Assembly: GCF_037042905.1 (NCBI RefSeq)
Contig: NC_087245.1
Coordinates: 29,886,001 to 29,950,000 of the forward strand
DNA: 64,000 bases
DNA from: Lytechinus pictus
Taxonomy: Eukaryota
Direction: 5' to 3'
The position numbers and the translations under genes are program-made. Numbering within the stretch: position 1 is the stretch's first letter; each line of letters opens with the position of its first letter. The notes beneath the pieces are model-generated. The model ran no database searches. It worked only from the letters and a program-made list of their open reading frames with translations, and was not told the DNA's origin. Of this stretch, positions 9,901 to 49,100 are shown piece by piece.

Positions 9901-12900
9901 GGTGACAGACAAAAGAGTAGTGACAGTGTCCCAAACAAAACTCGGTTGTAATTTTTCATTGCATAACCTTGTGTTCTCGAACGCTCTTGCTCCCCCATTC
10001 AGTCAATGCATGACCCACTTCTGTAGTTCATGAATCCTCACCCCAATAAGCTAGCTCTATTTTTTTTTTAATTCATTCTGATCTTGAACAGAATGCAGGT
10101 CTAGGCTCTCGAGTCTCGAGATAGAGCATAATTAAGAATTTGGCCTACTTTTGATGGTATCCTGACAAGTAAACCCATATATATAACCCTTACCCTCTTG
10201 AAGAGAAGTTGTCAAGGGCATAATTTATCCCCCAAGTAAAATTTGGGTTTTGTATTGTCCAAAGATACTGTACAAAAATAACAGAATTACGAGAATGCTA
10301 CATGGAAATCCATGAAAATTGCATTTAAGATATATTTTTGTTCCTCAAAAGGAAGAGAAACTTTTTTAAATAACATTTTTATAACATTAAATTTTATCCA
10401 AAATGTGATGTATTGTAAAATAACAAAATATGATATTTACATCACGTAAAACTTACATTTTTACAAAATTAAAAATGAATGAAAAGAGGTCAAGTTTTAG
10501 TGACTTCATAGACCTTCAGAGTAAAAGATGCAAATCGGAAAACAGTAACGGCTGTAAAATCAATAATGGAAGTATTTTGAAGGCTGATGATCTAGTTAAG
10601 TTTGGTATATTGTACACAATCCTCAAAACAGTTACCGGTACAAGAAATGATCATTACTTGTAGGGTGCATATTAATCACATAAAGAGAGTCCCTATGGGC
10701 TATTCCATGGTTACCCACGTTACATTTGGAGACACCTTGACTCATACTTGGAGCTGTAACTCCATTATTATTGATAGGAACTAAACATCTCTTTATCACA
10801 ACATAGTATGCAGTCTGACTATCCTTTGTATAAAAACAAAACTTGGGAAATTTCATTATGCTCCTGGCAAATCTTTGAAATGTGTCGGTTACTCATGTTA
10901 CATGATTTGGACATGCATAAAAAGAAAAGTGGACATAAGTGAAAAGTGTCCTCAGACAAGGCTTTTATGAAAGTTGATTATATCCATTTCAAAGAAGTAT
11001 ATTAGGGAGACAAATTTGTATATAATTAAAAAAATAAAGAACACATGGTTTTTACTAGGGGTGCAGATAAAGTGGTTACTCACGTTACGGTTCAGATGGG
11101 CCATATGTACAAAGACACATTGAGCTCATGTCCACCAACCTATGGAATTGCCCCTATGGCCTACATGTATGCACTTAAGATACAGAGTAAGTAAACAAAA
11201 ACATACACCCCAAAAATTGTCAACTATACAAAATATGCCCTGAAAGAGTATCTTCTAAAAAATAATTTGTTACCATTTTTATAATGGTTATTTTACACTT
11301 GGATATAATCAGGAGATAAAATTGCTGTGCCAGAGTAAGGTATGACTGCAGTCAACAGTTTTAAAATAAGTACATGTAGCAAGAAAAACCATTGCAAGCT
11401 ACTTTTTAAAATGAAATAAACATGATAATCCTTTCCTAAAAAACTTTGTAGAATCAATTAATATCAATAAAATCGGAAAGGTATTTCACAATAAAGCGAA
11501 ACTCATTAGAGGATTATGACTTCATGGACATTTGGATGAATTTGTTGCAGTCACTATACGTTTGCACAAATCAGGACTCGCTGTATATAAAAGCTATACC
11601 CGATTGTTTCCAGAGAGAATCATCTTTCTACACTGTAATGAAATATAAATGATAAAGTTTGCGTACAATTTTAGCTAGCTCTTGACTGGTAATTTTCTAT
11701 TCAATTATGAATTGCGTTTACTCCTTCTTCTTTTGGGTTGATCTGCCTCCTTCAAGACTGAAGATTCTTGCAGATATGGTTGACGCAGTGTGTGTGTGAG
11801 TAGCTGGGTTAAGGTGCAGTGTGCGTATTTACAAGGTGTAAATATACATGTAAATAGTATTGATGATTTAGCTTCTGCCTTCTGTCAAGCTCTCGGGGGG
11901 GGGGGGGGGGGGAGGGGGGCCACTTCCATTGACGAGTGGATACCATGTGCGACCATGGGGTCTCCAAAAGCACCCTAAACATATTATTTTCCATGTTCTG
12001 AAAATGCACCCCTTAATAAGTATTGGTGTGTGGAAATCTACCCTGCCCTTTACTGCGGCAGCCCGAACACGTACTGTGTTCGGGCTGCGTTGTGATTCAC
12101 CCCGGCTCACCAGATCAAACCAGATGAGCATCGGGAATCAATCAAAAATACATAAAATTGCACAAAACTGTTACAAAGGAATCAATACATACTTACAACT
12201 TGAGGCGCAATATGGGCGCCCCTCAAAACTTCGAAATAATTCCCCAAAACGAAGCAAAAACGTCGGAAAATTTTGCCGGTGTGCATTAAAAGTCGTTTGT
12301 ACAGGAAGCAATGGAGGATCGATATAGCCTTTTGACGAGGCAACGAGATAAATTGATTTTTATCTTCGTGCTAGCAGAAAACAAAAACAAAAGATAAATA
12401 ATAGCCTAATCCTTATAAAAACAAAAAATAAAATAATAATCGATTATAATACGTTTATAATACGCTCTTCCTATTAATTTCACCCTGTTTATTCACTGAG
12501 GATCCTATAGAAATATACTAGAAGTCTTTGACAAAAGGCTATCGTATGAGGCATGCGAGAAAGGGTAATATGAATATTCATAAGTCTAACTTAGTGGCGT
12601 AATTTCTTTTTCGATGGTTTGGCTGCGTGGCAGCCAGTGAATAAATCACTATTTTAACGGCCTTTTGTTTTTATTCGATTAGCTTCTTTTCATGTAATTT
12701 TTTTCTTCATTCTTTTCTCGTGTTCTAATATTATTTCTTAGTTCTCCCTCGTGATTTCTTTTCACTTTCTTTATTTTTTATCCCCTTTTCCGTTTTGTTT
12801 TTATTATTTTCATATTTTGTTCATCTACTTTTCGTTTCGTAGTTGATTTTCTTTTCCTTTCTTTACTGTTTCATTCTTTTCTTTTTTACTTTTGCTCTTT

Positions 12901-15900
12901 TTTCTTCGTTTCTTGTCTTTTCTTTTCCCTTTCGTTTTCTTTTTTATTCTTTTTTCTTTACTTTTCTACCTATTGTCTCTATATTTAAATTAGTTTCTTT
13001 ATCATCTTTTTTTTTTCGAGAGAGATTATGCACGTGGTGTCGCACATTTTTTTTTAATATGCATAATTGAAAACAATTGATACACCTTGTGAGTAAAAAG
13101 ATAATTTGATAGCCTATTTTATGTGGTTTGTATTGACGCTTGAAATGATGAAGCCTATTCTTTGCAAATAATTTATTTCCTTGTATTATATTAAGAAGTA
13201 CTAGTAATTTGATATCATTTCATGTTTGTATTTGAGTATTATTCTATTGTTGTAAATTGTTGTAAATTGTTGTACAAAATAATTATTCAGCCTTTGGCTG
13301 CGAGGTATGTTTTTAACAAACCATTATTGAATTGATTTTAGCCATATATATGGCTGCTATTTTTTCAAGCATTCAGCTTACGGTAGCCGCCGGTCTCTGC
13401 ATTTGAATTCATTTGTTATTGTTTACATGAATTATGTCTATATCTTCTTATAACCATAGGCGGCGGAAGTGGGGGCGGGGGGAGTATCCCCCCTAAATTT
13501 TAGGTGGGGTTACGAATCCCCCTAAATTTTTTGTTGATAACCTTTTTTTTTTTTGCTTCAATTTTTTTTGCTTGTCATTTTTTTTTGCTTTTCAAAAAAA
13601 TGTGGAGCCCCCTAAAATTGTTGGCTTCCACCGCCAACTACATTGTCACCGTTGTAATTTGATCATTATGTATGTTTGATTTTAAATAATTGTTATAAAT
13701 TTGCAATTTTGAATAAATGCAGAAATACCTGCTTTAAAAAGAAAGAGAAATGCTCGCATATATGACGTCACAAATAAATAAAAATAAAACTCTATTATTA
13801 TTTAACGAGATATATAATCCTGTACCCCCCCCCTGTTATCAAGTCAATATACACCAAACATATTTCCTCGCACTTCGGGTTATTATTGTTTTATTTAGTG
13901 ACACATGCTTCTTTTTCATGACCACTTTAAGTGATTTCCCCATGTTATGGTCTTAATATAAAACAGTTCCTATCCGTGATTTTCATTATTGGATTGTTGA
14001 GATCTGTCTACTCTCCATGAAGTCCTAAAATCAGTCCTTAAAATGTCCCCTTTTCTGATCTGAATATAAAAAATTTTCAGCTCGCGCTTTTCGCTCGCCA
14101 CATTTGGTCAGTGAAATACGTATGGTCTTAATGAATTCCTACAAACAAGCCTGAGAATGCCCCATTTCAGGTCTGAATTATCTAAATTTTGAGCTCGCGC
14201 TTCGTGCTCATAATATTTGATTAGTGAGATGCATATGATAATCATGATTACAATGACTACAAAAAGTGTTTCATGTGTTCAGATGTAATTATAACAAAAT
14301 CAGCAAGCACTTGGCACTCGCATTAGATGACTATGATGAGATTTATACTCATCATAGATTCCTAAAATATAGTCTTTAAAATCTCCCTCTTTTAGGTCTG
14401 AATATAACAAATTTTCCGCTCAGTAGCGTTGTCCTTAAAATGTCTTTATTAGGTCAGTATACCTGCGCGCACACTAATTGACTAAACAAAAATTGCTGGT
14501 GACCCCCCCCCCCCCCAATGCCGTGACCCACGGTACGCCACTGAGTGTGACATCAATTCCCATTGTTTGTATGTTTACAAGCATTTTTCATACCATGTGT
14601 ATGTTGGTAGAGCACGATGAAATCCCTCTGAAACACTAATTTGGTGGGAATTGGTCCATGGTGCCTTGTCGTTTATTTTCACTTGGACTGGTCTACTAGC
14701 CATTTCGTCCAGTTACCAAATCGTCTACTATCATTGGTATGCCATACCCACATGGCCTAATTGCCATTTCGTCTACTCACCATTTTGTCTAACAACCAGT
14801 TGGTCCAATAACCATTTAGTCCTAACCATTTGGTCTAATTGGACTAAGTGTTAATCGGTTAAAATTATTGGAACTAAAATGGATATTAGACCAAAAGGTT
14901 ATGAGAGGAAATTGTCATAAACGAACAGGTGATAAGACGAAGTGATGATTGGAATAAACGGTTGGAGCGAAATTTAGATGGAATGTTAATTAGACTAAAT
15001 TAAGGTAGACCATGTGGGAAGTGAACGAGTTGGCAGTAGACGAATTGGAAATTTACCTTAGATATGACCTCATGAAATATGAATACATGATTTGCCCCTT
15101 TGTAATCTAGGAACCAGTCCAATGATTTATTGACTTCAATGGGGCTAATTATGTATACCTAATTTTATGGCCTAATGTAACGGGATTCATTAGGTCTTAA
15201 AGCCCCTATCAGCCAATATGCCTACGGACCGATTCCCACCATGTTTGGATGTGGAGGTATTTCATCATGCCCTACCAAACTAGGCCTATAAATCACTCAA
15301 ATTCGAAGAAGAAAAATTTCGTGACGTCATCACTTTGGTACTCTATAATTTTATTTTATCTAGTAGACTCCAGTAGATTTATAAATTGGGCCACTTGATT
15401 TTCAACTGGACCAGTACTAACAAAATTGGATGGTGCTGTTTACGTGGTTTAGTTATTTGCATTTTTTTAAAGCAATAAATCATACTTTAGAGTGACAATG
15501 CAAAAGATTCTGAAGAAGTATGTGTAGAGACTTAGAATAGGCCCTATATTTCAAATTAGAGCAGAAAGATTAATTTATGAACCATCTATTCCATCTCATT
15601 TAGAATTAGCTTCACGGTACCGTACGCCATGACGTATTTTTCTTTACTTGGGCAAGTGTTGGTCCTGAAAAGGACCACCCAATCTCTTTAAAAAATAAAA
15701 AAAAAAGACGTGTTGCATTTTGACCAAGAAAGATCAGTATGGAATCCAGTTGAGTACTACTAGATTAGGACACAAGTAATAATATTGTGACCAGTAACAA
15801 ACTCCAGTAGACTAATATTATATTAAGACCACTTTAATTTCGAGTTAGTAATTCAAGATCAGTTTGACAAGTGGAATTTCAACTTGTAACTTTTTAAATT

Positions 15901-16070
15901 GACTGGTCTAGCTTAGTTGATCCAGTCTAATTTCATATGGACAAATATACGCGCAGCACTGAACCAGTAAGACAAGTAACCAATGTTGCAATTTCCAGAT
16001 CGAGTTACCAGTTGAAATTCTACTGGTCAGACTTGTCCAGTTTAAACTGGTTCTTTGTGATTTATTACTT

Positions 16071-16224
16071 TCTCCATTAGTTTGTGATGGAGGGCAAAGC
16101 ACGTGCTCTTTCCGTAACCCGTTGGGAGAATCACGAGACTGTCATTTCCTCTCTGGGCCTCTTCCAGGGCCTGTTTTTGAGGCACCTTTAATTTTATTGC
16201 AAATTCTTCTTCAAGTTCCTCCAT
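16071..16224 (-). pseudogene. First-exon remnant of a RecQ-like SF2 helicase (Q motif plus Walker A)
   Basis: MEELEEEFAIKLKVPQKQALEEAQRGNDSLVILPTGYGKSTCF; LPTGxGKS is RecQ motif I; possible donor AAA|GTAATA; no later helicase motifs found. Confidence 0.7.
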
Positions 16225-16466
16225 ATTTGCAACGCGAACTACGTTTCTGACGTCAATGTCGACTCAATATTGACCTTGATTCTAACTTATTACATCTCTA
16301 ATTTAAAAAAAAATGTATTTTGTAAACGCAGTCATGTTTGTTCATAATATACAGATTGAGATAAATATAATTTTAATGAAATGAATTCTTTAAATACTGT
16401 TTTTTTTTCTATGTTAAATGCAAGCAAGATTGATATCCATTACTGAAATACCTAAATCGCGATTTA

Positions 16467-19400
16467 CTGTACAAGCTGTTATTTTCGCGTACAGAATTTT
16501 TAGCGAATCGCGGGGTCCCGACATTTTCGCGGGTTGTTAAATTCGCGATGGGAAGATGTACAAAACATTTCCACAGCATTCCTAAGAAGCAAAACTAGTG
16601 GAAATTACGTGCAAATTCATACTCTTCAAAGTCCTCATGCTGATGTGTCTCTTGTACATAAATATGTCCCTGTAAAAACAGTTACAAACTGTGGAAAAAG
16701 GTGGCTTGAATTTCACCTTTTTTTACCTTTAGTTCTGAAAATTCATCATGCCACAATTTGATCTGTAATCTACAGGGTTTAGCAATCTTTGGAATTTGTG
16801 ATTTGTTCGATTCATTTTTCAAAAAGTTGGTAAAAGTGCAAAAATTTGGAATTTTGTGAACAGAATCTTCACCTCTAAAAGCTCTGGTCATGTGACTTAT
16901 GAATATTAATGAGTATGCAAATAGCTGCCAATACGTGTGTATAGAGTCAATTAGATGAAAATAAAATCAAATTATTTCATGAAAAATACATTTTGATATT
17001 ACAGGGAGTGTATGAATATTGATAAAATGATATTAGAAAATAGTTTAGGCTCTGATTTTGTTTGAGAAATTTAAAAAAGTGAAATTCTAGCTAACTTTTT
17101 GAATCACTAACTGTACTTTCTAAGCCTTATTTTTTGTACATATACAGGTGCATATCTCCAAATTCCCACTACACAGGATGTTTTCGATTTCTACAGTAAA
17201 GCTTTGCTGTTACGGACATTGGCACTGCACGTACGTTAATCCCTCCAACTCAGTGTAAAAAGTGGGCGGAGCTTAATCGGATTTTCGGGCCTAGCAACCC
17301 TGTTAGCAACGCCTGTTAGCATCGTTTGGCTCAATCTCCATAATGTCTGCGATATTAAAATCCTACAAACTGATGGAATTATTCAAATTTAGTAAGGCTA
17401 TGAATGTTTATCATTTACACTGACTATCGGTGTACAAACTCATACCGAATTTAATGGCAATTGCCTGTTATATTACGAATTATCAGTCATTTTGATGAGT
17501 GATGCAAAGTGCCAAAATTTATGAAAATATAGCGTAAATTTTATATAGCATTTCAAAATCCTTATTTTCAATATCCCCATAATTTTTTGTTGTTTAAAAA
17601 AATATCTTATTACATTTACCAGAATTTTCCCGACCTGATAACGTTAATAGATTACTGTTTCTCGGCTTTATGAGGAAATGCCAGACCTTCAAAATCAGGT
17701 TAATTATTGTTATATTTCTAACAGAAAATTGTTAGATTCGAACTACTATACCAACTGTACGCCCGAATGAGGGTTATCATCTCGTATTGTTGTGTAAATG
17801 ATACATATCAATTCATTTTAGGAGTGTAGTAATCCATGTTAGATAATCTTTTTCACGATGAGTTTTGTAATGAAGAGAAAAAATCAAGTTCATTCTTGGC
17901 ACGCGAGCCGCAGAATGATAAATTTTAGTGTGCGCAGACGGGGCTGATCCCTAGTGTGTCGGACGGGATTATCTAGTCCCATACTGGTCATGCTGGTTTC
18001 GGGTGGTATATTCCACGATGACCACTGTCCAGTTTTATAGTGCTTAATGTTGATACTTAATCTGTGAAATGAATAGTTTACCGATATCTAAAAATGCTCT
18101 AATATACCTGACACATGAATGATTTCATTTTTGAGAATTATCATTTCTTTCGACCTGCATGAATCACAAAAAGTCAATCATTAGTCCCCTTTCTCTGCTA
18201 CTGAGACTGACGAGGTGGTAGAGGGAGGGGGGGGGGGGTAATCATCTCACCGTGCTCACTGCCGCCCCAGCCAAGTGTGTTTGATACATTTTAATTGCAA
18301 GGGCTTCTCCTCCTCCTTTATCTCCCTGTTCTCTCTTTCTTTGTTTTTGCTTTCGTGCCATTATATATCTCAAAGATCAGCTCTCCCTATTTAAATTTCC
18401 ACTGTCTTGTATTTTTCCTTCCCTCCTGTTATGGTCAAGCTCTCAAATAAAGCTTGCCCTATTAATATTTGACCCTCTGTCATTCTACCGGCCTGCAATC
18501 TCCTTTTGGCCCCTTAATTCTTTTTTTCTCTCGGCCTCGACCCCTCCCCATGCAATCTATTTCATCCAACCCTTTTACTCCCCCAACTCACCATGATTAT
18601 AATTTATAATCACAAGAGCCTGGTAATAGGCATATTGAAGGTCTATAAATATTGATACTACTTTCATTTTAACAAATAATTTGAGTCCCCCCCCCCCCCC
18701 GGCGGTCATGCAGGTTGGCTTCATATGTTCCATAATGGTAAAGGCGGTCGTGGAATTTACAAAACATATAGTTGTTTTATATTTTCTGTTTAACATATAC
18801 CGAGATGCTGATGACATTGGACAAACTTAACACGATATTTCCCAAACCTATATTTTTAACTATACAGTCAATGTTACACATTCTTGACATCAGTTTGACT
18901 TTTTGTAATTAAGGAAAGAAATAATAATCACCGAAAATGAAATAATTTATGTGTCAGGTATATTCCAAGTATTTTTAGACATCGGTAAAGTATGAATTTC
19001 ATAGACTGAGTATCGAAATAAAACACTAAAACTGCACAGTGGTCATCGCGAGGGGAAAAGGTACGTGAAATATACCACCTGACTCCAGTATCGGACTGGA
19101 TAATCTGAACGGACAGCCCGGGCGATCAGCCCCGTCTGCACACGCTAAAATTTTGCATTCTGCGGCTCGTGTGCTAAGAATGAACTTGATTTGTCTGTTC
19201 ATTACGTAACTCATCGTGAAAAATGTTATCCAACATTGATTGCTACACTCGTAATATTTAATGTTATGTATGATATACACAAATTTATGTGATGATAACC
19301 CTTCTTCGGGAGAACAATGGTATAGTTGTTCGAATCTAACTATTTTCTTTTAGAAATATAACAAAAAATAACCCGATTTTGAAGGCCTGAAATTTTCTTA

Positions 19401-19953
19401 TGAATGATGGAGAAAATAAGCTACCAACGTTATCAGGTCTGGAAAATTCTAGTTAATGTAATAAGATATTTTTTAAAACAACAAAAAATTATGGGGATAT
19501 TGAAAATAAGGATTTTTGAAATGCTATATAAAATTTACGCTATATTTTCATAAATTTTGGCATATTGTATCACTCATCAAAATGACTGGTAAATCGCCTT
19601 CTTACACACACTTGCTTATAATTTCGATATAGGTTGATACACCGATAGTCAATATAAATGATAAACATTCATAGTCTTACTAAATTTAAACGATTTCATT
19701 AGTTTTTAGGATTTTAATATCGCAGACATTTTGGAGAGTGAGCAAGAAGATGCTCGTAAGCGTCGCTAACAAGATTGTTAGGCGACCTACCGCGAGAGGG
19801 CTTTTATAATGGCGGGCTCCACTGAGTTGATACATAGCCTATAGGCGGTGAACGTACGTGACTGACTAAGAAATGTGTCAATATTTTCGCGTGTTGTTAA
19901 ATTCGCGGCCGATCGGCAATTCGCGAAATCCGCGAAAATAACAGCTTCTACAG
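16467..19953. mobile_element. TA-flanked non-autonomous DNA transposon (Tc1/mariner-like) hosting a nested element
   Basis: TIR CTGTA(C/G)AAGCTGTTATTTTCGCG; TA at 16465-16466 and 19954-19955; TTCGCG subterminal repeats. Confidence 0.8.
17228..19860. mobile_element. Chapaev-like (CAC..GTG termini, 4-bp TSD) foldback element with ~950-bp inverted arms
   Basis: Termini CACGTACGTT/AACGTACGTG; ACTG at 17224-17227 and 19861-19864; ~17228-18180 is a diverged reverse complement of ~18890-19860. Confidence 0.75.
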
Positions 19954-20884
19954 TATTTGAAAAGCAAGTTCGTGATTCGACCGAAGTTTTCTTATCTCTT
20001 CTTGTAATGCATATTCATTAACCTTAACAGTGACGACATCTTATAAATATTCATGTTGCGCATGCGCATACATGTTTTTCATTTAATTCAACATGGCGAT
20101 TCGTACGAAATCCGAAAATTGATCCTCTATTGTACGATTCCATCAAATTTTCATAATTTTAAGGAGAACGTATCTTGAACTCAGATTGTTTAGGTAAGGT
20201 CAGTCCTAACTGTCGTATTTTTGGTTTCGTTTTATCATCCATGTTTTTGTAATTTAGCGATTAATCTAGTGCATCAGTGCACTCCGGTGAGAACGAGTGG
20301 GAGCGTTCAGGACCTCGACACTGTCTAAAGACGTCGTGTCGAGGTTCCCGGGGCAACCCTGCCCTTAACAAGTATTCGAAGCAAAGCGATACCTTGGCAA
20401 GTATTCTTTGAATTGAACCCCTAAACAAGTTAAGTGTTATTTTAATTGTTAAATGTCACGGACTTCGGTCGTCGATTTTACCTTTACCTGCATCATTGGG
20501 TTTAGTACGGCCCCACCTACCACACCTCGCGCAAATCGGACTCTAAAATACTTAGTGATGACTGTTGGTTCAAAAAGTAGCCTACATCCTTTATAAAACA
20601 TTTTAGTCTTTTATACCCTCCCAAATTTGACCCTAAACACGTAGCTTTCTGAGCGAAATAGATACCTTTTTTCATTATTTAGTGTTTTTGACACCCTTAT
20701 TACATTACGTTCGTAATGTGCCCTATCTTGAAAAAGACGTCCTTTTTACGTGTTTTTGGTCGCAGATGGTATCCATTCGTCAATGCAAGTGCCCCCCCCC
20801 CCCCCCGGGTCAAGCTTTGACAGGAAGGCTTTTGGACTACTCCATTGACAAACAAGCCCAAATAAATGAAACCTTGAGCATAAA

Positions 20885-23392: not shown

Positions 23393-23649
23393 TTAAAGGA
23401 ATATGCTCCGAGCTGAAAATGATATGATATAAATTAACAGAATAATCAGACCAAAAAAAAAACACTGAAAATTTGATCAAAATCCGACAAGGAATAACAA
23501 AGTTATGGCATTTTAAAGATTTGCAGCATTCCGGTGTAACATTTTTTAGGCATGTCTTCATGAATATTCAATGAGCAAACTTGAAGATGTAATTTCCCCA
23601 CTTGTTCTTTTGTATATTAGGTTTATTCAATTTTTTTCTACCAAGAGAG

Positions 23650-26600
23650 ACGGATGAACTGTTTGAAAATTGGCAGTGCCCGAAATGTATTCTCCAAAGT
23701 GTATTACCTTTTTGGAATGATCCTGATCTATCTACTGAAGTCGTGTATAACTGTAATAATATTTCTGTCGACGCACATGATGATATGTCAACCGAAACTA
23801 ATGATTTTGCTCTAAAAGATATTAAAGGTATAAAATTAGCTCATCTTAATGTCAGAAGCATTGTTAATAAAGTTGCTGATTTACAATGTTGGCTGAATAA
23901 TAACCCTTATGATCTACTAGGAGTGTCAGAAACATGGTTAACAAAAGAACATTCTGATAGCTTGATTTCTGTTAAAGGTTATAAGTTTGAGAGGAAGGAT
24001 AGATGTACTCATGGAGGTGGAGTGGGATGTTTTATATCAGAAAATTTATCGTATATAAGGAGATTGGATCTTGAATCTGTTGCCTTAGAAATAATTTGGT
24101 TGGAGTTGCAACGTAGCAATAGTAGCTCATTATTTATTGGTATACTGTATAGAAAACCGGATAATCATTTAGATTTTTTTGACAGTCTTGAAAGTAATCT
24201 TGAGAAATTGTATACAGTTACAAACAACGTCATCCTTCTTGGTGATTTTAACTGTAATATGCAAACCATAAATAATCTTTCTAGAAAAGTTTCCAGTCTC
24301 CTTACTACAATGCAAATGACACAGGTTATATCTGAACCCACTAGAATTTCACCACATAGCCAGTCAGTAATCGATTTGGTATGTATTTCTGATGCACTTG
24401 TTGACAATATTATTAAGTCAGGAGTGCAGCCCGGGGGGGCCACTTCCATTCACGAGTGGATACCATGCGCGACCATGGGGTCTCGAAAAGCACCCTAAAC
24501 ACGTAATTTCCATATTCTGAAAATGCACCCCTTAACAAGTATTGGCGTGTGAAACCCTACCCTTAACAAGTATTGGAAACAAAACGATACTCTTGGCAAA
24601 TATTCCCTGAAATCAACCCCTAAACAAGTACAGGAATGTTTTATTGTTACGGGTCCTTCGGTCGTCGACTTTACCTTATTTGGTTTAGTACGACCCCACC
24701 TTCTACACATCGCGCAAATCGGACTCTAAACACGAAGTGTTGGGGCAAAATGGACATCCTTTATAAAACTTTTTTTTTTTGGTTTTATCATTCCCGCAAA
24801 TTCGACCCTAAACACGTAATTTTCCTAGCGAAATAGACACCCTTTTTTCATTATTTTTGTGTTTTTGACACCCTTATCACGTTACGTACGTAACGTGCCC
24901 TATCGTGAAAAGGACATCCTTTTTACGTGTTTTTTTGGTCGCGCATGGTATCCACTCGTCAATGTAAGTGGCCCCCCCCCGGGGAGTGCAGTCAGCTGGA
25001 CTTAGTGATCACTCTGTGATTTTTACTGCAATTAAAGGGAAACATGAATCCTTTTCTCCGAAAATAACTAAATGTCGTTCATTCAAGTACTTTGACAGTG
25101 AGAAATTTAAAGATGATGTAAGGAAAGTTGATTGGCATGAGTTTTATTCCTGTGGGACTGACGTTGAAAAATTGTGGCACTACTTTAAAAACACACTCCT
25201 GGACATTTGTGACAGGCATGCCCCCGTGATATCAGTGCGGCAAAAACAAAGAGGGGTACCTTGGATAAATGATGATTTTTTGGTGTTAGCACGCGAAAGG
25301 GATTATTATCGAAAGCAATTTAGAAAAACAAGATTAATTTATTGGTGGAATAAATTTCAGTTTTCCCGTAACAGAGCTAATAACTTGATTAAAAATTTGA
25401 AAAAGAAGTATTATCAGGACAAATTTAAGGACTGCGAAAATGACATAAAAAAGAACTGGAACATTTTATCGAAGCTTATACCTAAGAAAAATAAAACCAC
25501 GAGTCATGATGTTAAATTAACAATTGATAATGATCAAATACCTAGCAATGAAATAGCTCACGTTCTAAACAAAGCCTTTAATGAAGTCGGCTCAAGGTTG
25601 CAAGCCGCTTCGGGTAATTTCTCGAAAGATTTATTAAACAATTTACAAACTCTGTTTATTCCAGATTGTGAATTTAAATTTTATGCAATCAAAAAGGAGT
25701 ATATGTTTTGAAAGAACTATTACATATTGATTGTTCGAAAGCGGTCGTAGTAGATGGCATTCACCCTAAGTTTCTTAAGCTGGCAGCAGAGAGTATAGCT
25801 GGCCCTTTAACCCATTTATTTAATGCAACTTTACAAACTAGTGTTATTCCAGAAGATTTTAAAACAGCAAGAATTACTCCTGTACATAAGGGAGGATCAT
25901 TTGATATTGACAATTATAGACCAATTTCTGTGCTTCCAGTCCTGTCCAAAATACTAGAGAGAGCAATACATGATCAATTGTATAAGTACTTAAATGTAAA
26001 TGGTCTACTTGCTAATTGTCAGTCTGGCTTCAGACCGTCTTATTCTACTGCCACTTGTCTAACTGAGATTACAGACTTTTTGAATGATAAAATGGACCGA
26101 AAACATGTTACTGGTGGTATTTTCTTGGACTTACGCAAAGCGTTTGATGTTATTCCTCACAATTTTATACTTGCAAAACTTACTGAGTATACTATATGAA
26201 TACAACTGGATGGAATCGTATTTAACAGACAGAAGGCAATTTGTAATGATTAACAATTGTCGCAGTGAATTTTTGAAGATAAAATCAGGTGTCCCACAAG
26301 GATCTATACTGGGTCCATTGATATTTTGTATTTTTATTAATGACATGTGTAATTTGAAATTGCATGTACATTCTAAAATGTCTCTTTATGCTGATGATAC
26401 CGCCATTTTTAATCACGGTGAATCAATTAAGGAGGTACAAAAGTATTTGCAAGATGATTTTGATTCAATAAGTAAATGGCTAGACTTAAATAATATGCAT
26501 TTACACCCGCAAAAAACAAAAGCCATGGTATTTGGTCAAAAGAAAAAGTTGAGGGGTGCTTATTTGTCAGTGAAATTCAGGAACATACAATTAGAAAATG

Positions 26601-27208
26601 TAAAAAAGATTAAATACTTAGGTGTCATGCTCGATCCGGGCTTGACTTGGTGCGAACATATTACTAATATCGTTTGTAAAATATCTCGGGCAATAGGTTG
26701 TGTAAGGCGGATTAAGCACTTACTGTCCTTTGATATTATGAAGAAGCTGTACTTTTCTATGGTTTTACCTTACATTGATTACTGTATTACATCTTGGGGA
26801 AGCAGTGCAAAAATACATTTAGATAAGATACAAAAACTTCAAAATAAATATGCCAGAATGCTTTTGAAAAAAGATTATAATACATCACAAATTTCTTTGT
26901 TGCAGTCACTGAAGTGGCAATCAGTAGATCAGCGTATAAAATATCAGTATTGTGTTCTTGTATATAAAATAATGAATGATTTAGTTCCAAATTATTTAAA
27001 ACCTTTAGTATGTAAACGGCCCGTGAAATACAGGACACGGTATTCTTTACGATGCCCCCTTCAGCTTCCCAAAGCTAGAATTGAACATAAAAGAAAATCT
27101 TTCGCATATGTCGGACCCAAATTATTTAATGCACTTCCTTCAAATTTACAAGTTTGTACCTCCTTGTTAGTTTTTAAAAAATTATGCAAAGCCTTTCATA
27201 CGAATTGA
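23650..27208 (+). pseudogene. Disrupted LINE ORF2 (APE endonuclease plus reverse transcriptase)
   Basis: ORFs 23602-24498, 24968-25711, 25708-26199 and 26084-27208 are consecutive pieces of one ORF2. Confidence 0.92.
24430..24983 (+). mobile_element. Intact CCCGG(G)n-ended MITE inserted in the LINE endonuclease domain
   Basis: TIR CCCGGGGGGGCCACTT; TSD GAGTGCAG (24422-24429, 24984-24991); removal restores in-frame SGVQSAGLSDH. Confidence 0.92.
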
Positions 27209-38109: not shown

Positions 38110-41100
38110 TTATTAATAATTATTATTATTATTATTATTATTATTATTTATTCAGCAATTCACACAAAATATAACAATGTAAATATGAGTACACAAACAA
38201 TTATAAATGCAAAATCTTCCTGGCGGTCCTCTGAATGCATCAGTTGGCTGCCGGGGAAGAGGAAAGCAAACTTAATCACTGTAACCGTAATGGTCCCTCT
38301 TCCCGACCAACTGGTGCACATAGAAGACCTGTAAGATATAGCATGAAGGTAAATAAAATGTAAAATGTAAAACATTTCATAAACTAAACAACTAACAAAA
38401 ACAAAGTACAAAGAGAACATGAAACTAATATGTATGATGACACTAGGTCATGACACGATACTGAGCTTAAACATGAGGAATTAATTCTGGCTTAAAAACT
38501 ATTGCATAAAATGTAAAGTAAGCAAACTGAAACGATGAAGTCTAAAACTGAGAAAAAAGAAGAAAAAAAAAATGAGAACATGTAGTAGCAAGCTGACAAG
38601 AATGTCTAAAATTATATATGTTGACCGGTATATAGAAGTTAAGAAAACATGGTAAAAGAAGTGAATAGGTACATAGGCTTAGTGGGCTTCAGGCGATTAA
38701 GGAAACTAGGAAAACACATTAAAGAACGAGTACTTCATATATTAAATTGTATACACAATTATAATAAAGAAGCTGCGATGGAACTGTCCAGAAGATGTTT
38801 AAATAATGGCAGGAAAAAGAGGGGAAAAAAGCAAAAGAAAAAAGACTCCAGAGACATAAAAGCAGTATAATCAAAATTATAGTTTCGGCTCAAGAATGTC
38901 AAAAAAAAGTAGACGAATGAATGATTCCAAATCATACCGTAATTATTAAATTAACCTATCGTAAATTAAACAAAGACTTCAAAAGATAAAGTTAATTGAA
39001 GAAGATATGACTTTTCAGCCTGTATTGCCAGGTCTGAAATTTAGAGAGTACAAAGTCAATGCGCAAGTCCCGAGGTAGTTCGTCCCACAGTCTAGGAAAA
39101 ATGTAAATGGCGGAATCACTTAAACGTTTCGTACGAGCCATCAGGTGATGGAACCTGATATCCTCTTGTCTCCTTTCTATAACTCTGATTTTCAAAGAAA
39201 TATCACTGCTCTCAACAATTGTTGTAGAGAGCTTTAGCCACGAAGTTAATGAGCAAATATTTCCTACGGGATTCTAGTGAGACCCAATTAAGGAGTCTTA
39301 GACGCTCAGGATAGGGCATCTGCTGCCTGCGCTGTTTCAGGATGATACGAGTGGCTCTTCTTTGAATACTCTCAAGCCTGTCACCGAGATTCCTGTTGGT
39401 GGGGTTCTACGCAGGTAAGCAGGTAATTTGTAAAGTGCCAGGAGAGCTGAAGTTGCTAAACCCGATGACATGGAGGTGATCAATCCCAGCAATCTATTGG
39501 CTTTGCGGGTAATGTAATCAACGTGATCATCCCAAGACAGCTTGGTATTGATTATCACCCCGAGATATTTTGCTTGTAAGACTGGCTCAATGAGAGCTCC
39601 ATTCAAATGATATACTGGTTCGGCGACGTTTTTCCTTAAACATGAAATTCGCATCACTTTCGTTTTGCTCACATTTAGCTTCATTCCATTGGAAACACAC
39701 CACTGCGAAACCCTGTCAAGATCACGTTGTAATATTGCAGAGTCCGTGATATCACGTACAGGTCGGTAGATGATTGTGTCGTCCGCAAACAATGCACAAG
39801 GTGATTCCAAGCTATTAGGTACATCGTTGATGAACAAATTGAACAACAGCGGACCTAAGACACTCCCTTGAGGAACCCCAGACAGGACAGAAGCCCACTC
39901 CGAGAAGGAACCTTTGTATAGGACACGGTGGCGTCGTCCGCATAGAAAGGATTTCATCCATGCCCAGAGGTTACCGCCAATATTGAACATTTCTGAAAGC
40001 TTACAAAGCAGGACGTCGTGGGGCATCTTGTCAAATGCACGAGAAAAGTCTAAGTAGACTACATCGACAGGACATGAACGCCGACCCTCCAGGCAGGTAA
40101 GCCACTCATTCGTAAGATGTAATAATTGGGTTACACAGGATTTACGCTTTCTAAATCCATGCTGAACGCTGGTGATTGGGCAGTTAGTACTGAGATGGTT
40201 TTCAATTGCGCTCACTACAATAGATTCCATCATCTTACTGGCAACTGAGGTAAGCGCAACAGGCCGATAATTAGAGGGATCTGACCTGTCACCAGATTTA
40301 AAAACTGGACAGACATTCGCTACCTTCCATGATCCCGGAACTTTGCCTGCCGACAGTGACAATGAGAGAATACGCTGAAATATATGTGAAGACACCGCGG
40401 CGGTTCGCTTTAACAGGACAGGGGACAAACCATCCACGCCAGGGGCCTTATTCTCTTGAAGTGAGTCCATGAGTCGAAAGATATCACTGGTCGAAATGTC
40501 AAATGACTGCAAGCATTCGATCGGAAATTCACATGTCGGTGGAATAGCTGGCACACATCTTTCCTCCGAAAAGGATGATTGAAAACAGCTGAGGAACTTA
40601 CTTGCGATGTCGTGGGGTCTACTGAAGACTTCATCATTAACAACAAGAACTGGCGGAGGAGCGTTCCTTTTATGCTCTCGGATGAACGCGAAAAACCGCT
40701 TCTTATTATCGGGAAGAGAGAAAAGGTCATTGACATAGAGACTGTATGAGGATCTGATGGCATATTTTGTCTTGTTCCAAATATTCTTGAAGGACAGCCA
40801 ATCCTCTGCTATCTTTGACCTTGTAGCTTTCCTGAAGAGTTTGCCCTTCAATGAAATCATGGCTTTGATTTCCCTGGAAATCCAGGGCTTCCATCTCCTG
40901 GATCTCTTGGTTACTCGGGGGATGGCATCCTTAGCTGCAGCCTCGAAGATGTCTAAGAATCCTTCCCAAGATGCATCAACATCATTGGTATCAATAAAGA
41001 GTGACCAAGGAACCAACTAAAGCAAGCGGTTTAGATGATCGAAGTCACCTCGTTGATAAAGCATAAAGTTACGAAGAACATCTCTGGTTGTGAACGACTT

Positions 41101-42520
41101 ATTATTCACGATCCGAAAATGAACGGCGAAATGGTCACTAGGTGTTGGATTAGGACACACACGTGTCTCAGCGAACAGATCACGACGATTGGTGAACAAG
41201 TGATCAATCAACGTTCCTCTGGTCGCATCCTGAGGCGAAGGCCTCGTCACTGTATCAACTAGCTGTGTCAGGTCCATAGTGCTAAGCATAGTCAACAGCT
41301 GAGTTGCATCAGTCGAGTTGATGTCTAGCAAGTCAACGTTCAAGTCACCCGTCAGTATCACACCAGCATAATCACCCACGTATCGTTGTGTGTCATCGAT
41401 GAACTCCTGGAGAAAGTCCCAATACTGGACATTAGCATTAGGTGGGCGATAGATGGTAATGAGAAGCCATTTTGACTTACGCATCACAATCTCAACACAT
41501 GTCATCTCTAGGCAGGGGTGTTCCAATGCAACGAGACGTCGGGGACACAACTTTGCATGAATAACTGTAAGGACCCCACCTCCACCCTTTTCATGGCTCT
41601 CTTGAATGTCCTGCCGGTCACGTCGAAACAGAACATAGTCATGGGGAAATCCGAGCTCAGTAGAATCACAGGATTCATTTAACCAACTCTCACATATGCA
41701 TAAAATATCAGTGGGATTACAACTGAGGTGCGCTATCAAGTCTGGCATTTTATGTCTTATGGAGCGTGCATTGAATACAGTCCCAGATATAGTTGAGACA
41801 GATCGACTAGAAGAACGTGAGTTTTCATTGCTAGGACTATGAAGCACAGACGGGCCCGGGCTCGGACATATATCTCCGGCTCTAAGCAAGAGTTGGTATG
41901 ACGCTGTACAGTTGGGATAGTAGTAGATGTTAGATCCGCTACACTTGGGGCGCTGGGTTGGGGCGGCATATACATCACTACTTAAAATGCTCAAGTCACA
42001 TTGTACGAGACAATCCTGCTTTTGGAGCAGGATAATAACAACAAACAGACAACTGACTACCTTCATTGTTGATCGAGAAAAGCTCCTTCTTTGTGTAGTG
42101 CAGGGTCCTATTGGCAATTCCATTGTCAAGGGTGACCATTTAGGCAAATCCAAACAAAAGAAAAAGGACAATAATAGCCCCAATAGAGAAGACCTTTGCA
42201 GCTAGCATTAGTGAGTCCAGCAAGAGAAAGAGCGCTAAGGTAGAGAAGCATCAAGCCAGAGCTATGGCTAGACGAGGCAGGATCTCCTGTACCAGCAAAC
42301 TTTCCACACTGGGGTCACGGTCAGTCATATTTCAGAACCTAGAATCACTATTTTCTGAAGCAAGAGGATGGAATCCACAAGTCAAACAGGTCCAATGTGA
42401 TCACAGGACACATACAAATAGGTTGACAAACATTCCAAGCACAACTTTAACAAGAAAACAGAAATTTAACAACAAAAATAGGAGCACTCATGAGAGGTAG
42501 TTTTCTCCATCTTTGATGTC
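38110..42520 (-). mobile_element. Near full-length single-ORF CR1/L2-group LINE in MSH6 intron 1
   Basis: APE motifs FNARS, ESWL, GDLN, SDH; RT motifs YRPVAL, QHGFR, YLDFSRAFD, GVPQGSVLGP, FADDT; long AT-rich 3' UTR ending in (AAT)n; 5' end AAGATGG near 42515. Confidence 0.93.
38992..42183 (-). pseudogene. LINE polyprotein: hydrophobic leader, 2A-like peptide, APE, RT; one in-frame TAG and C-terminal frameshifts
   Basis: ORFs 41017-42183 and 39337-41016 are in frame across a TAG at 41017-41019; tail PRLWDELP in ORF 38992-39195. Confidence 0.9.
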
Positions 42521-46123: not shown

Positions 46124-49100
46124 GTATGTAGAAAACTATCTTCCATCTTGCTCATGATATATTCTTGATTCGCTGTTAAAGTGAGATTTTGAGTGAATTA
46201 GATATATAAATTCTGAAGTACGGTAAATGTAAGGTTTTGGTTTTTTGTGAAAATTTATTTTGTTTTGTTTATCCCTTAGTAACTTGAATAAATAAACAAA
46301 TTGAATGTATGATTTTTTTTTACCCTTTGCCAGCTCAGGCAGATGGTGTGCAGGGCATGGCATCTAGAAACTTCTTTATTTGGGAATCCACCCTTACATG
46401 AAATTGTTGTTTACTAAAGCACATAGTAAAAAAAACATATCGTTATTCTGTTAAAGAATGTCCTGGATGCATATCCTTTGTCAATATATGATTTATCAAT
46501 GAACAGGTGATTTATAAAAAAATATCTCATCCCAAGCAGAAACCTCTCTTCTCTCTAAAGGGCTCAAGTTTTGCCCCACGCCACCAGCAGTTGACCAGAT
46601 AGCTCTCAGCCAAGACCTCTCTACATTCTATCGCAGGATACGTCTCAAAGAGTTCTCTTTAGATGTACCCCCTTCTGATCCCGAGCCCTTCTACAAGAAA
46701 AGCACATGGACTCCACCCAAGAATAGAGTTCCTTCCCTTGAAACTTACATTCAAGCTGTCTCATCCCAAGTTCGCTCCACAGATACCCTCGACAGCAGAG
46801 CACATGACAACCTTCCTCGAGAAGAACGCCAGGCTCTCTCATCACTCAAAAACAGGTCCGACATCATCATCAAGCCTGCAGACAAAGGATCAGCCGTCGT
46901 CGTTATGGACCGCGAGCAGTACATCGATGAAGCCATGAAACATCTCAATAATCGATCTCACTATGCACTCCTCGATTCTGACCCCACTTGTAATTTCTCC
47001 CTACAGATCCAATCGACACTGAATGACATGAAAGAACACAAGCATCTCTCTGAGAAGGCCCACAAATTTCTTTCCCCTACTAATGTTAAACCTGCCCGCT
47101 TCTATCTCTTCCCCAAGATCCACAAACCTGGCAACCCCGGTCGACCCATCCTCTCAGGAAATGGTTCCCCAACAGAGAACATCTCTTTGTTGATTACCAC
47201 ATTAAACCCCATGTCTCACGTGCACCCTCTTACATCCACGACACTCTAGACTTTCTCAGGAAACTAAACGACATCAAGGACCAGATACCCGAGACTGCGA
47301 TCATCGGCACTTTCGATGTTTCTTCACTGTACACCAACATTCCCCATGATGAAGGTATCTAAGCATCATGTGAAGCCTTGGCCGCCAGTGGCCATTCCAG
47401 TCCCCCCATATCCGATATCAAATCTCTGATGTTTCATGTACTAACGAAAAACAACTTCACATTCATGGGCAAGCACTATCTACAGATATTTGGTACAGCA
47501 ATGGGCACTCGGATGGCTCCTTCATTCGCCTGTCTCTTCATGACCAAGCTGGAACAGCAGATGTTAGATTCAGCCCCCTGTCGCCCATGGATTTGGTGGC
47601 GTTACATATACGACATTTTCTTCATCTGGACCAGGGAGGAAGATAGCCTCCATACATTAATTGACCACATCAATTCCTTCCACAGGACCATCAAATTCAC
47701 TTCTGATTTCTCCGAACAGGAAACCCACTTCCTTGATGTCACAGTCCAGAAAAAGCCTCATGGTATTACCACTACCCTGTACACTAAACCCACAGATACC
47801 CACCAGTACCTGCACTCATCCAGCTGCCACCCCCATCACTGCAAAACTGGCATCGCTTTCAGTCAAGCCCTCAGACTTCGCCGCATCTGCTCCGAGGACC
47901 CTGATTTTTCCCTCCATGCCAGGAATTTGAAGAGACATCTCTGTGCCAGGGGCCACGGTGCCAGGGCAGTCCAACTGGCAATTAACAAAGTTCGTTCTCT
48001 CCCCAGATCTGAAGTTCTCAAACCACAAAGTGACAAGGAGACTACTGACAGAATACCGCTTGTGACCGCCTTCCATCCCAATCTACCCCCTCTCCGTCAA
48101 ATCCTGTGTGATAACCACCACATTTTACACACTTCTGATCGTCTCCAACAGGCCGTTCCCGATACTCCTCTCCTAGCGTACTGACGCCCACCCAATCTCA
48201 GGGACCTCATTGTTCGTGCTGAAGTGCCCCCCCTCACTAACCACTCTTCTCCCATACAGCATGGCACCTTCAAATGTACCAGCAACAGGTGCATCATATG
48301 TGAAATACACATTCACGAGGGCGACACTTTCACCAGCAACTCTACCAGCCTTTCTCACCAAACTATCCAATCTCCCGTTCTCCCGACCCCATGCCAAAAT
48401 CTCCCGGATAATTGGGATTTTTAGCTGTTAAATTGTAAAATTCATACAAACGACTGTTTTACGAGTCTAGCATGTTCAACTCCCTTTACACCCACGTGGA
48501 ACCTCCTTATCACATTTTCATTTTACCCAGTAACTTTTACCAGTTTTTGTATAATTGCACAATGATTTCCAATGTAAATGAAGATAATTTTACTGTACAA
48601 CTGGTGAATTAGTCTAACAAACCATTTTTTAATGGTTCTGCAATGTGTGTGATGGAAACGCTTCAGCGGCACTCCAGGGACATGCACCCCGGCGCGGCCC
48701 TGCCTGGTCTCCAGCCGGCCGCGCCGCGCCAGGAGGCTATGAGAAGGGAAGGCCACGAGCACTGCGAGGCATATTTCGGAAGCTTGTGTGCGCTTTATGG
48801 ATTTACAAGTGGATAACTATTATAATTACACCCCGACTTTCAGGAATAATTTTATTGACAATCCTGCCTTCCATCCCAATCTACCCCCTCTCCGTCAAAT
48901 CCTGTGTGATAACCACCACATTTTACACACTTCTGATCGTCTCCAACAGGCCGTTCCCGATACTCCTCTCCTAGCGTACCGACGCCCACCCAATCTCAGG
49001 GACCTCATTGGTCGTGCTGAAGTGCCCTCCCTCACTAACCACTCTTCTCCCATACAGCATGGCACCTTCAAATGTACCAGCAACAGGTGCATCATATGTG

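Follow-up and report, generated by a model that had tools for sequence, protein, structure and literature searches.

The block at positions 12050-20356 of the window (the whole 64,000-nt stretch of Lytechinus pictus DNA analyzed here) is likely to be a non-autonomous, internally deleted derivative of an AcademH-like cut-and-paste transposon with two-part, natively unlike ends. It inserted into a MITE, duplicating 9 (possibly 11) bp of the target, and retains both ends together with the promoter side and exon 1 of a helicase gene, the exon lying about 640 bp from the right end. Younger elements became nested inside it later. The element may have been mobilized by a transposase acting in trans, or its genes may have been lost after insertion. 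Its probable classification is as a non-autonomous AcademH-like derivative with atypical ends.

The split MITE and the target duplication

The window is repeat-rich eukaryotic DNA with a G+C content of about 37%. The features that define the insertion are as follows.

11884-11891, plus strand: left copy of the 8-bp target duplication of the split MITE, GTCAAGCT; right copy at 20809-20816
11892-12049, plus strand: 5′ half of the split MITE, with the inner duplication (left copy) at its end
12040-12050, plus strand: left copy of the 11-bp repeat; the preferred 9-bp duplication, CCCTGCCCT, is 12041-12049
12050-20356, no strand assigned: inserted element, with TT..AA ends if the duplication is 9 bp; 12051-20355, with TA..CA ends, if it is 11 bp
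20356-20366, plus strand: right copy of the 11-bp repeat; the preferred 9-bp duplication is 20357-20365
20357-20808, plus strand: 3′ half of the split MITE
24430-24983, plus strand: intact reference MITE (different subfamily), with an 8-bp duplication, GAGTGCAG

The initial annotation had proposed that a block of about 8.3 kb splits a single MITE, and the alignments bear this out. The 5′ half aligns with positions 24434-24563 of the intact copy (90% over 131 nt) and the 3′ half with positions 24553-24980 (79% over 457 nt); together, the halves cover the intact copy at 24430-24983 end to end. The outer repeat is present on both sides, outside both MITE halves. The intact MITE itself breaks up a LINE-like reading frame. 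The site rebuilt from both flanks of the 12050-20356 block exceeds its counterpart in the intact MITE by 5 nt. Because the split MITE carries further insertions of 5-10 nt elsewhere relative to the intact copy, it probably belongs to another subfamily.

The inserted block measures 8,307 bp and is bounded by an exact 11-bp repeat, ACCCTGCCCTT, starting at 12040 and at 20356. The match extends no further, and the repeat occurs just twice in the window, in agreement with the earlier proposal of a flanking repeat that is 9 bp if the ends are TT..AA and 11 bp otherwise. Two boundary readings only, 9 bp with TT..AA and 11 bp with TA..CA, place the ends in register. The end-to-end TIR match is 14/22 under the former and 13/22 under the latter, upholding the weak TIR (about 12/20) previously described. 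A match of at least 13/22 is reached by 12 of the 10,148 GC-rich 22-mers in the window; the weak TIR match of the element exceeds chance. The 11-bp repeat is probably a 9-bp target duplication extended by two chance matches. In one of 15 relatives, L130, a 9-bp duplication is likewise stretched by chance matches to an apparent 11 bp, with an A before and a T after, as is seen here; the 12050-20356 boundary is therefore preferred.

Nested insertions and a RecQ-like exon

The interior of the block contains the following features.

13455-16050, no strand assigned: stretch holding several fragments, probably of MITEs or repeats (repeats compared; junctions placed by eye)
16069-16224, minus strand: RecQ-like helicase exon 1, 52 codons that cover the Q motif region as well as motif I, with a phase-0 GT after them
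16467-19953, no strand assigned: nested non-coding element with TA on both sides and 24/25-nt inverted ends
17228-19860, no strand assigned: foldback inside the TA-flanked element, with CAC..GTG ends, a 4-bp duplication (ACTG) and arms 81% alike over 901 nt
20057-20098, minus strand: promoter-like motif pair 5′ of the helicase, GCCAT and then TGCGCATGCGC

Younger nested elements, which the initial annotation did not contain, make up at least 3.5 kb of the block. The TA-flanked element lies between the helicase exon and its upstream region; its removal brings the helicase start codon to 642 bp from the right end, with the gene pointing inward. The probable fragments, whose approximate boundaries were set by eye, lie at about 13455-13640, 14009-14541, 14689-15058 and 15360-16050. 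The 11-mer palindrome of the promoter-like pair occurs once in the window. Both motifs are found in two of the six related loci examined, L070 and L076, in which their order is kept. We take the factors that correspond to GCCAT and TGCGCATGCGC to be YY1 and NRF1. Searches of the element with DUF6589 proteins and the N-terminal frames of a complete relative (L077, described below) recovered no transposase remnant, and searches with full-length relatives recovered no later helicase exon or motif. The absence of a transposase is expected for a non-autonomous derivative, and it bars filing the element as an autonomous AcademH.

The presence of a RecQ-type N-terminus inside the block, also part of the initial annotation, is confirmed. 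The exon is open throughout (16224-16069) and contains VILPTGYGKS; it matches Pfam DEAD with an E-value of 2e-5, below the curated cut-off, and its best match among solved structures is a RecQ. The RecQ-like SF2 helicase characteristic of AcademH is thus represented by exon 1 alone. A search of 1.84 billion proteins returned 26 at E ≤0.001. The best real matches are short unnamed frames, P0003 (65%), P0004 and P0005, in which similarity stops at the end of the exon. These three frames come without genomic context. The match with the best E-value, P0002, was rejected as a repeat artefact, and a weak search among 16 candidates yielded no longer homologues of the exon. Human BLM, RECQL4, RECQL5 and WRN score at most 17.7 bits, as compared to 61 bits for P0003, which, however, comes from another library.

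A tree was built from 52 columns and 49 rows; BLM, RECQL1, RECQL4 and RECQL5 are absent from it, and rows shorter than 48 residues (L066, L067, L076, P0043 and P0044) were left out. The peptide and P0003-P0005 form one clade in this 52-column tree (support 99/89). A branch with support of 97/98 parts the peptide from 19 of the 21 cellular RecQ rows, a vertebrate WRN among them, and leaves two cellular and six viral rows on the peptide’s side. Viral RecQ-like proteins are as near to the peptide in the tree as transposon helicases are. A two-profile test scored the peptide at 49.0 versus 46.3 bits, a margin of 2.7 bits that amounts to a near tie, in a test that sorted all 34 training rows correctly on leave-one-out. 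The exon peptide is probably not a cellular RecQ, judging from these comparisons, and its tie to transposon helicases rests more on context than on sequence. The comparison with cellular RecQ proteins that had been suggested as a check therefore has a divided outcome: the 97/98 branch separates the peptide from nearly all cellular rows, but the profiles nearly tie and the nearest relatives are free of context. Viral contigs scanned with the profile contained 59 matching loci, most of them RecQ-like genes of giant viruses with 33-68% likeness over short stretches; six of these 59 loci were used, as tree rows only. A protein atlas search returned only short DEAD-type clusters, with no informative taxa.

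Helicase-carrying relatives

Relatives were found with a degenerate motif scan of our own design, and the resulting set is biased accordingly; it comprises 17 metagenome loci and two genome loci. Among them, L077:9671-15408 is a complete element of 5.7 kb with TAG..CTA ends and a 9-bp duplication. It encodes a RecQ helicase with a zinc-binding domain and, convergent with it, a DUF6589 gene. L119 resembles this complete element. In L067, the helicase converges on a DUF6589 frame whose PHD-like match is weak, and the first intron of the helicase (phase 0) follows the same codon as the GT of the exon at 16069-16224. From the gene layout, DUF6589 is taken to be the putative Academ transposase.

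The assembly from which L077 derives (G001) contains 573 matches to the end motif, as compared to 17 for a control, and 39 helicase starts. Forty stretches were taken from it: 20 apparent pairs chosen among the first 100 ends in the list, and another 20 located around helicase matches. With L072 and L077 added, 42 loci entered the count of target duplications, for which an exact flanking repeat of at least 6 bp was needed. All 14 end pairs with such a repeat have a 9-bp duplication, or 15 of 15 when the complete L077 is included. Possible end pairs in L071 and L078 lack a duplication and were excluded from the count. Several derivatives keep the helicase start alone, namely, L072 (620 bp), L109, L124 and L115. 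In L113, the ends are identical at 15 of 30 positions and their motif spans differ by 9 nt, and the duplication is a clean 9 bp. The element at 12050-20356 fits a common type among helicase relatives, because these relatives share 9-bp duplications and helicase-start-only derivatives and include L113 as a case of a weak TIR.

The likeness to the TAG..CTA relatives (L077, L119, L113, L072, L109, L115 and L124) covers the probable 9-bp duplication, the inward helicase start near one end, an inverted second motif no more than about 85 nt from each end, the existence of helicase-start-only derivatives and, once (L113), a weak TIR with a 9-nt span difference. These relatives have TAG..CTA termini, a motif at nt 13-15 and stems that are often imperfect, whereas the element has TT..AA or TA..CA termini, its motif at nt 10 and near-perfect, unlike stems. 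Its helicase also belongs to another subclade than theirs. The uniformity of TAG..CTA among the relatives is biased, as they were partly selected on TAG.

The AcademH lineage of the Academ superfamily was reportedly defined by Kojima in 2020 (Mob DNA 11:15). AcademH elements make 9- or 10-bp duplications and carry a helicase (PMC10045372; PMC10799480); two other sources treat the distribution of Academ elements, which average 5.6 kb in length in bivalves (PMC5751038, PMC10294476). As far as these texts describe the lineage, the element resembles it in its RecQ-type helicase, its duplication of about 9 bp and its relatives with TIRs and a convergent transposase-like gene. It differs in being non-autonomous, in holding exon 1 alone, in its apparent 11-bp duplication and in ends that match at only 13-14/22. 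The AcademH-like origin first suggested for the block draws support from the 9-bp duplications of the relatives, their DUF6589 gene, the helicase-start-only derivatives, the intron of L067 and the tree position apart from most cellular RecQ rows, but it is weakened by the near tie of the profiles, by nearest relatives without genomic context and by the differing termini. The lack of a transposase remnant, the non-TAG termini, the motif at nt 10, a right end without CAG, viral proteins as near in the tree as transposon helicases and the absence of a second copy of either end from the contigs scanned are all observations that run against the explanation given at the outset.

Paired motifs at the ends and competing explanations

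Each end carries a subterminal inverted pair.

12058-12088, no strand assigned: left pair, perfect 13-bp stem with a 5-nt loop, containing CAGCCC..GGGCTG
20310-20348, no strand assigned: right pair, 12 pairs with one bulge and a 14-nt loop

Within the right pair, a perfect 10-bp stem with the 14-nt loop occupies 20312-20345. The folding z-scores are -4.6 for the left hairpin and -3.0 for the right, and the claim that each end has a hairpin of its own thus holds. The window contains 24 perfect stems of at least 10 bp. A lone stem in the window is not rare, but a stem at both boundaries is, with a probability of about 3e-5 by rough arithmetic. The stems span 29 nt on the left and 38 nt on the right, a difference of 9 nt. 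An inverted pair of CAG(A/C)CC-type motifs lies near the end, as CAGCCC..GGGCTG on the left and in a different sequence on the right. The left end shares the CAGCCC hexamer with which the stem opens in the relatives, starting at nt 10 (nt 13-15 in the relatives); at the right end, a stem of another sequence, lacking CAG, keeps the same register. The outermost bases read TTA/CAA or TAC/GCA, whereas all the relatives have TAG..CTA.

The inner ten pairs contain four positions at which the left stem is unlike the right one, and the partner arm mirrors every one of these differences. The two ends were therefore unlike before, or independently of, random decay. A decayed TIR is accordingly not an entirely correct description of these ends. 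Because such mirrored changes are beyond the reach of random decay, they also keep recognition of structure open. Palindrome repair can mirror stem changes without any function.

Comparison with the relatives bears on both points. At all 18 ends of the nine relatives longer than 200 bp, CAG(A/C)CC stands at nt 13-15 and an inverted copy ends at nt 38-82, usually within ordinary TIRs. The end hairpins are thus a trait of the group, and the view that they are special to this element has to be abandoned. In 12 of the 18 ends, which come from about four families, CAGCCC faces CAGACC as an unrepaired mismatch; this favors sequence sites that would be bound as a pair. The spans of the motif pairs vary between 26 and 70 nt. 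Of 10 ends tested, 8 have stems that beat all 60 shuffles; in a set of 14 ends, 10 have a folding z ≤-2, as compared to 15% of 60 GC-rich background windows; the remaining 4 of 14 lie above -2. The idea of a long end paired with a short one in each relative was rejected, the span differences being 0, 1, 0, 9, 3, 3, 3, 0 and 0; a difference like that of the element (29/38 nt) occurs in one of the nine, L113 (70 and 61). On the strength of the motif comparisons, paired putative binding sites are ranked ahead of folded structure as the reading of the ends. The earlier suggestion that the ends are recognized by structure consequently keeps the mirrored differences in its favor and has the uncompensated mismatches against it. 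A literature search found no account of AcademH end stems, the defining AcademH paper lying outside its reach.

An exact scan of public metagenome contigs with the left hairpin found no related copy, and an exact scan of viral contigs with the element junction found no match. Hairpin scans of viral contigs hit three loci per hairpin, which show no likeness to the ends outside the stem and were dismissed as chance. These scans of public metagenome and viral contigs yielded no second copy of either end. Fourteen sequencing runs have 5-52% of the sampled words in common with the query, an overlap that carries no weight for copy number, an empty site or the host.

Under the preferred explanation, each end would consist of two parts, a short terminal segment and then a head-to-head motif pair. 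The head-to-head motifs are putative transposase binding sites that, in the somewhat favored version of this explanation, would be read as duplex. Selection or palindrome repair may keep the hairpin, which folds on paper, perfect. Both ends would be natively unlike each other, in stem sequence and in span (29 and 38 nt), rather than decayed copies of one TIR.

A rather unlikely alternative retains the same ancestry but has the ends read as structures: RecQ would open the ends, or cruciforms would extrude, and the transposase would recognize stem-loops. Sequence could then drift as long as pairing persists, and hairpins unlike each other could still join one complex. The four left/right differences mirrored in their partner arms are consistent with such a reading, as are the 8 of 10 ends that beat every shuffle and loop lengths that vary more widely than a rigid dimer could tolerate. 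The 12 of 18 relative ends with an uncompensated stem mismatch argue against it, as do the conservation of the CAG(A/C)CC hexamer as sequence, the 2 of 10 ends that fail against shuffles and the 4 of 14 with z above -2; palindrome repair, too, can mirror changes without function. In the MULE Muta1, restoring the terminal palindrome increases transposase binding, not cleavage or joining (PMC5499845), which is in line with structural recognition. In its fullest and equally doubtful form, this alternative would make AcademH-type ends structure-bearing modules, with a stem-loop exposed or resolved by the element’s own RecQ helicase for a DDE transposase, and some lineages would pair unlike stems about one helical turn apart (29/38 nt here, 61/70 in L113).

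It is decidedly less likely that the block is a MULE-type element with degenerate ends and a helicase exon captured in the manner of a Pack-MULE, with an Academ element or some host gene as its source. MULE TIRs are long or start with GC, and autonomous partners carry a MULE transposase. Ends without TAG..CTA, a single exon and the near-tie profile test would suit such a capture, and Muta1 and other MULEs share duplications of 8-10 bp and, for Muta1, a palindromic end pattern that affects transposase binding (PMC5499845). The Muta1 palindrome differs in that it makes up the terminal 10 bp and has tandem repeats behind it, and a helicase is not mentioned in the text consulted (PMC5499845). Against such a capture, the exon here lies near one end and points inward, as in the Academ-type elements, with an upstream promoter-like motif pair common to helicase relatives; the left end has the hexamer and stem of the Academ-type relatives, and derivatives of exactly such content are common among them. 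It is highly improbable that the true ends are 12045 and 20361, displaced outward by 5-6 bp, with CCCT as a 4-bp duplication like that of the Academ lineage that duplicates 3-4 bp. Such ends would give a restored site as long as that in the intact MITE and a stem beginning at nt 14, like those of L072 and L066, and AcademX duplications are 3-4 bp (PMC10045372). All 11 matching bases would then have to be chance between element ends and flanks, however; only one of the outer 6 nt would match between the ends, and insertions of 5-10 nt relative to the intact copy occur elsewhere in the split MITE anyway. A RecQ-carrying KolobokH-type element deserves next to no credence. The KolobokH target duplication is TTAA, whereas the duplication here is 9-11 bp without TTAA. 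KolobokH does encode a RecQ helicase, but it is reported from fungi only (PMC9587614).

For the most part, the locus is ordinary transposon debris. It indicates that helicase-carrying Academ-type elements can have ends only about 60% alike, so that they are missed by TIR-based finders; a search for two subterminal inverted pairs together with a 9-bp duplication would detect them. The inverted motif pair at every end is a testable handle on the role of the RecQ helicase. If the ends do prove to be structure-bearing modules, an unexplained helicase would gain a job, and such elements would escape TIR-based annotation.

Repeats within and around the studied element

A foldback, which we take to be Chapaev-like, lies inside the studied element. 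Its arms, 900 bp each, are only 81% alike, yet the outer, older duplications are intact. A short inverted pair near the element's left end (12320-12336 and 12527-12545), was noted on visual inspection; it could represent a regulatory site or a small nested element. Elsewhere in the window, LINE-like endonuclease and reverse transcriptase frames (23593-27208) are split by the intact MITE at 24430-24983. The inverted repeat at the window start, each arm of which contains a 28-nt hairpin (162-189 and 1249-1276), is probably a further TIR element cut by that boundary.

Repeats in the window
17228-19860, foldback (ends CAC..GTG, 4-bp duplication)
1-1400, long inverted repeat pair with arms at about 1-235 and 1207-1400
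39337-42201, minus strand, LINE-like frames (translations read)
46518-48184, reverse-transcriptase-like frames (translations read)

Sources of related helicases

RecQ-like helicases were also observed on viral contigs (L001-L059), many of them giant-virus bins. They have the PTG(F/Y)GKS form of motif I in common. In the short helicase tree they group on the side of the transposon proteins, separate from most cellular RecQ proteins. Records labeled as bacterial, G001 (behind L077, L079-L090, and L097-L136) and that of L078, contain intron-bearing helicase-plus-DUF6589 transposons. The ends of these transposons number in the hundreds in G001 (573 end-motif matches versus 17 for the control). The likely reading is that DNA of an animal host was assigned to a bacterial bin.

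End architecture

The 5.2-kb element L113:51-5208, which encloses remnants of a helicase and a transposase, is flanked by an exact 9-bp duplication even though its ends match at only 15 of 30 positions, with motif-pair spans of 70 and 61. These ends look like products of different subfamilies. Four minimal elements, 59-102 bp long, consist of one motif pair within TAG..CTA.

Minimal elements
L102:51-152, 9-bp duplication, single motif pair
L103:51-141, 9-bp duplication, single motif pair
L105:48-146, 9-bp duplication, single motif pair
L130:1503-1561, 9-bp duplication, single motif pair

Either end of a larger element is similar to one of these minimal elements without the inner terminus.
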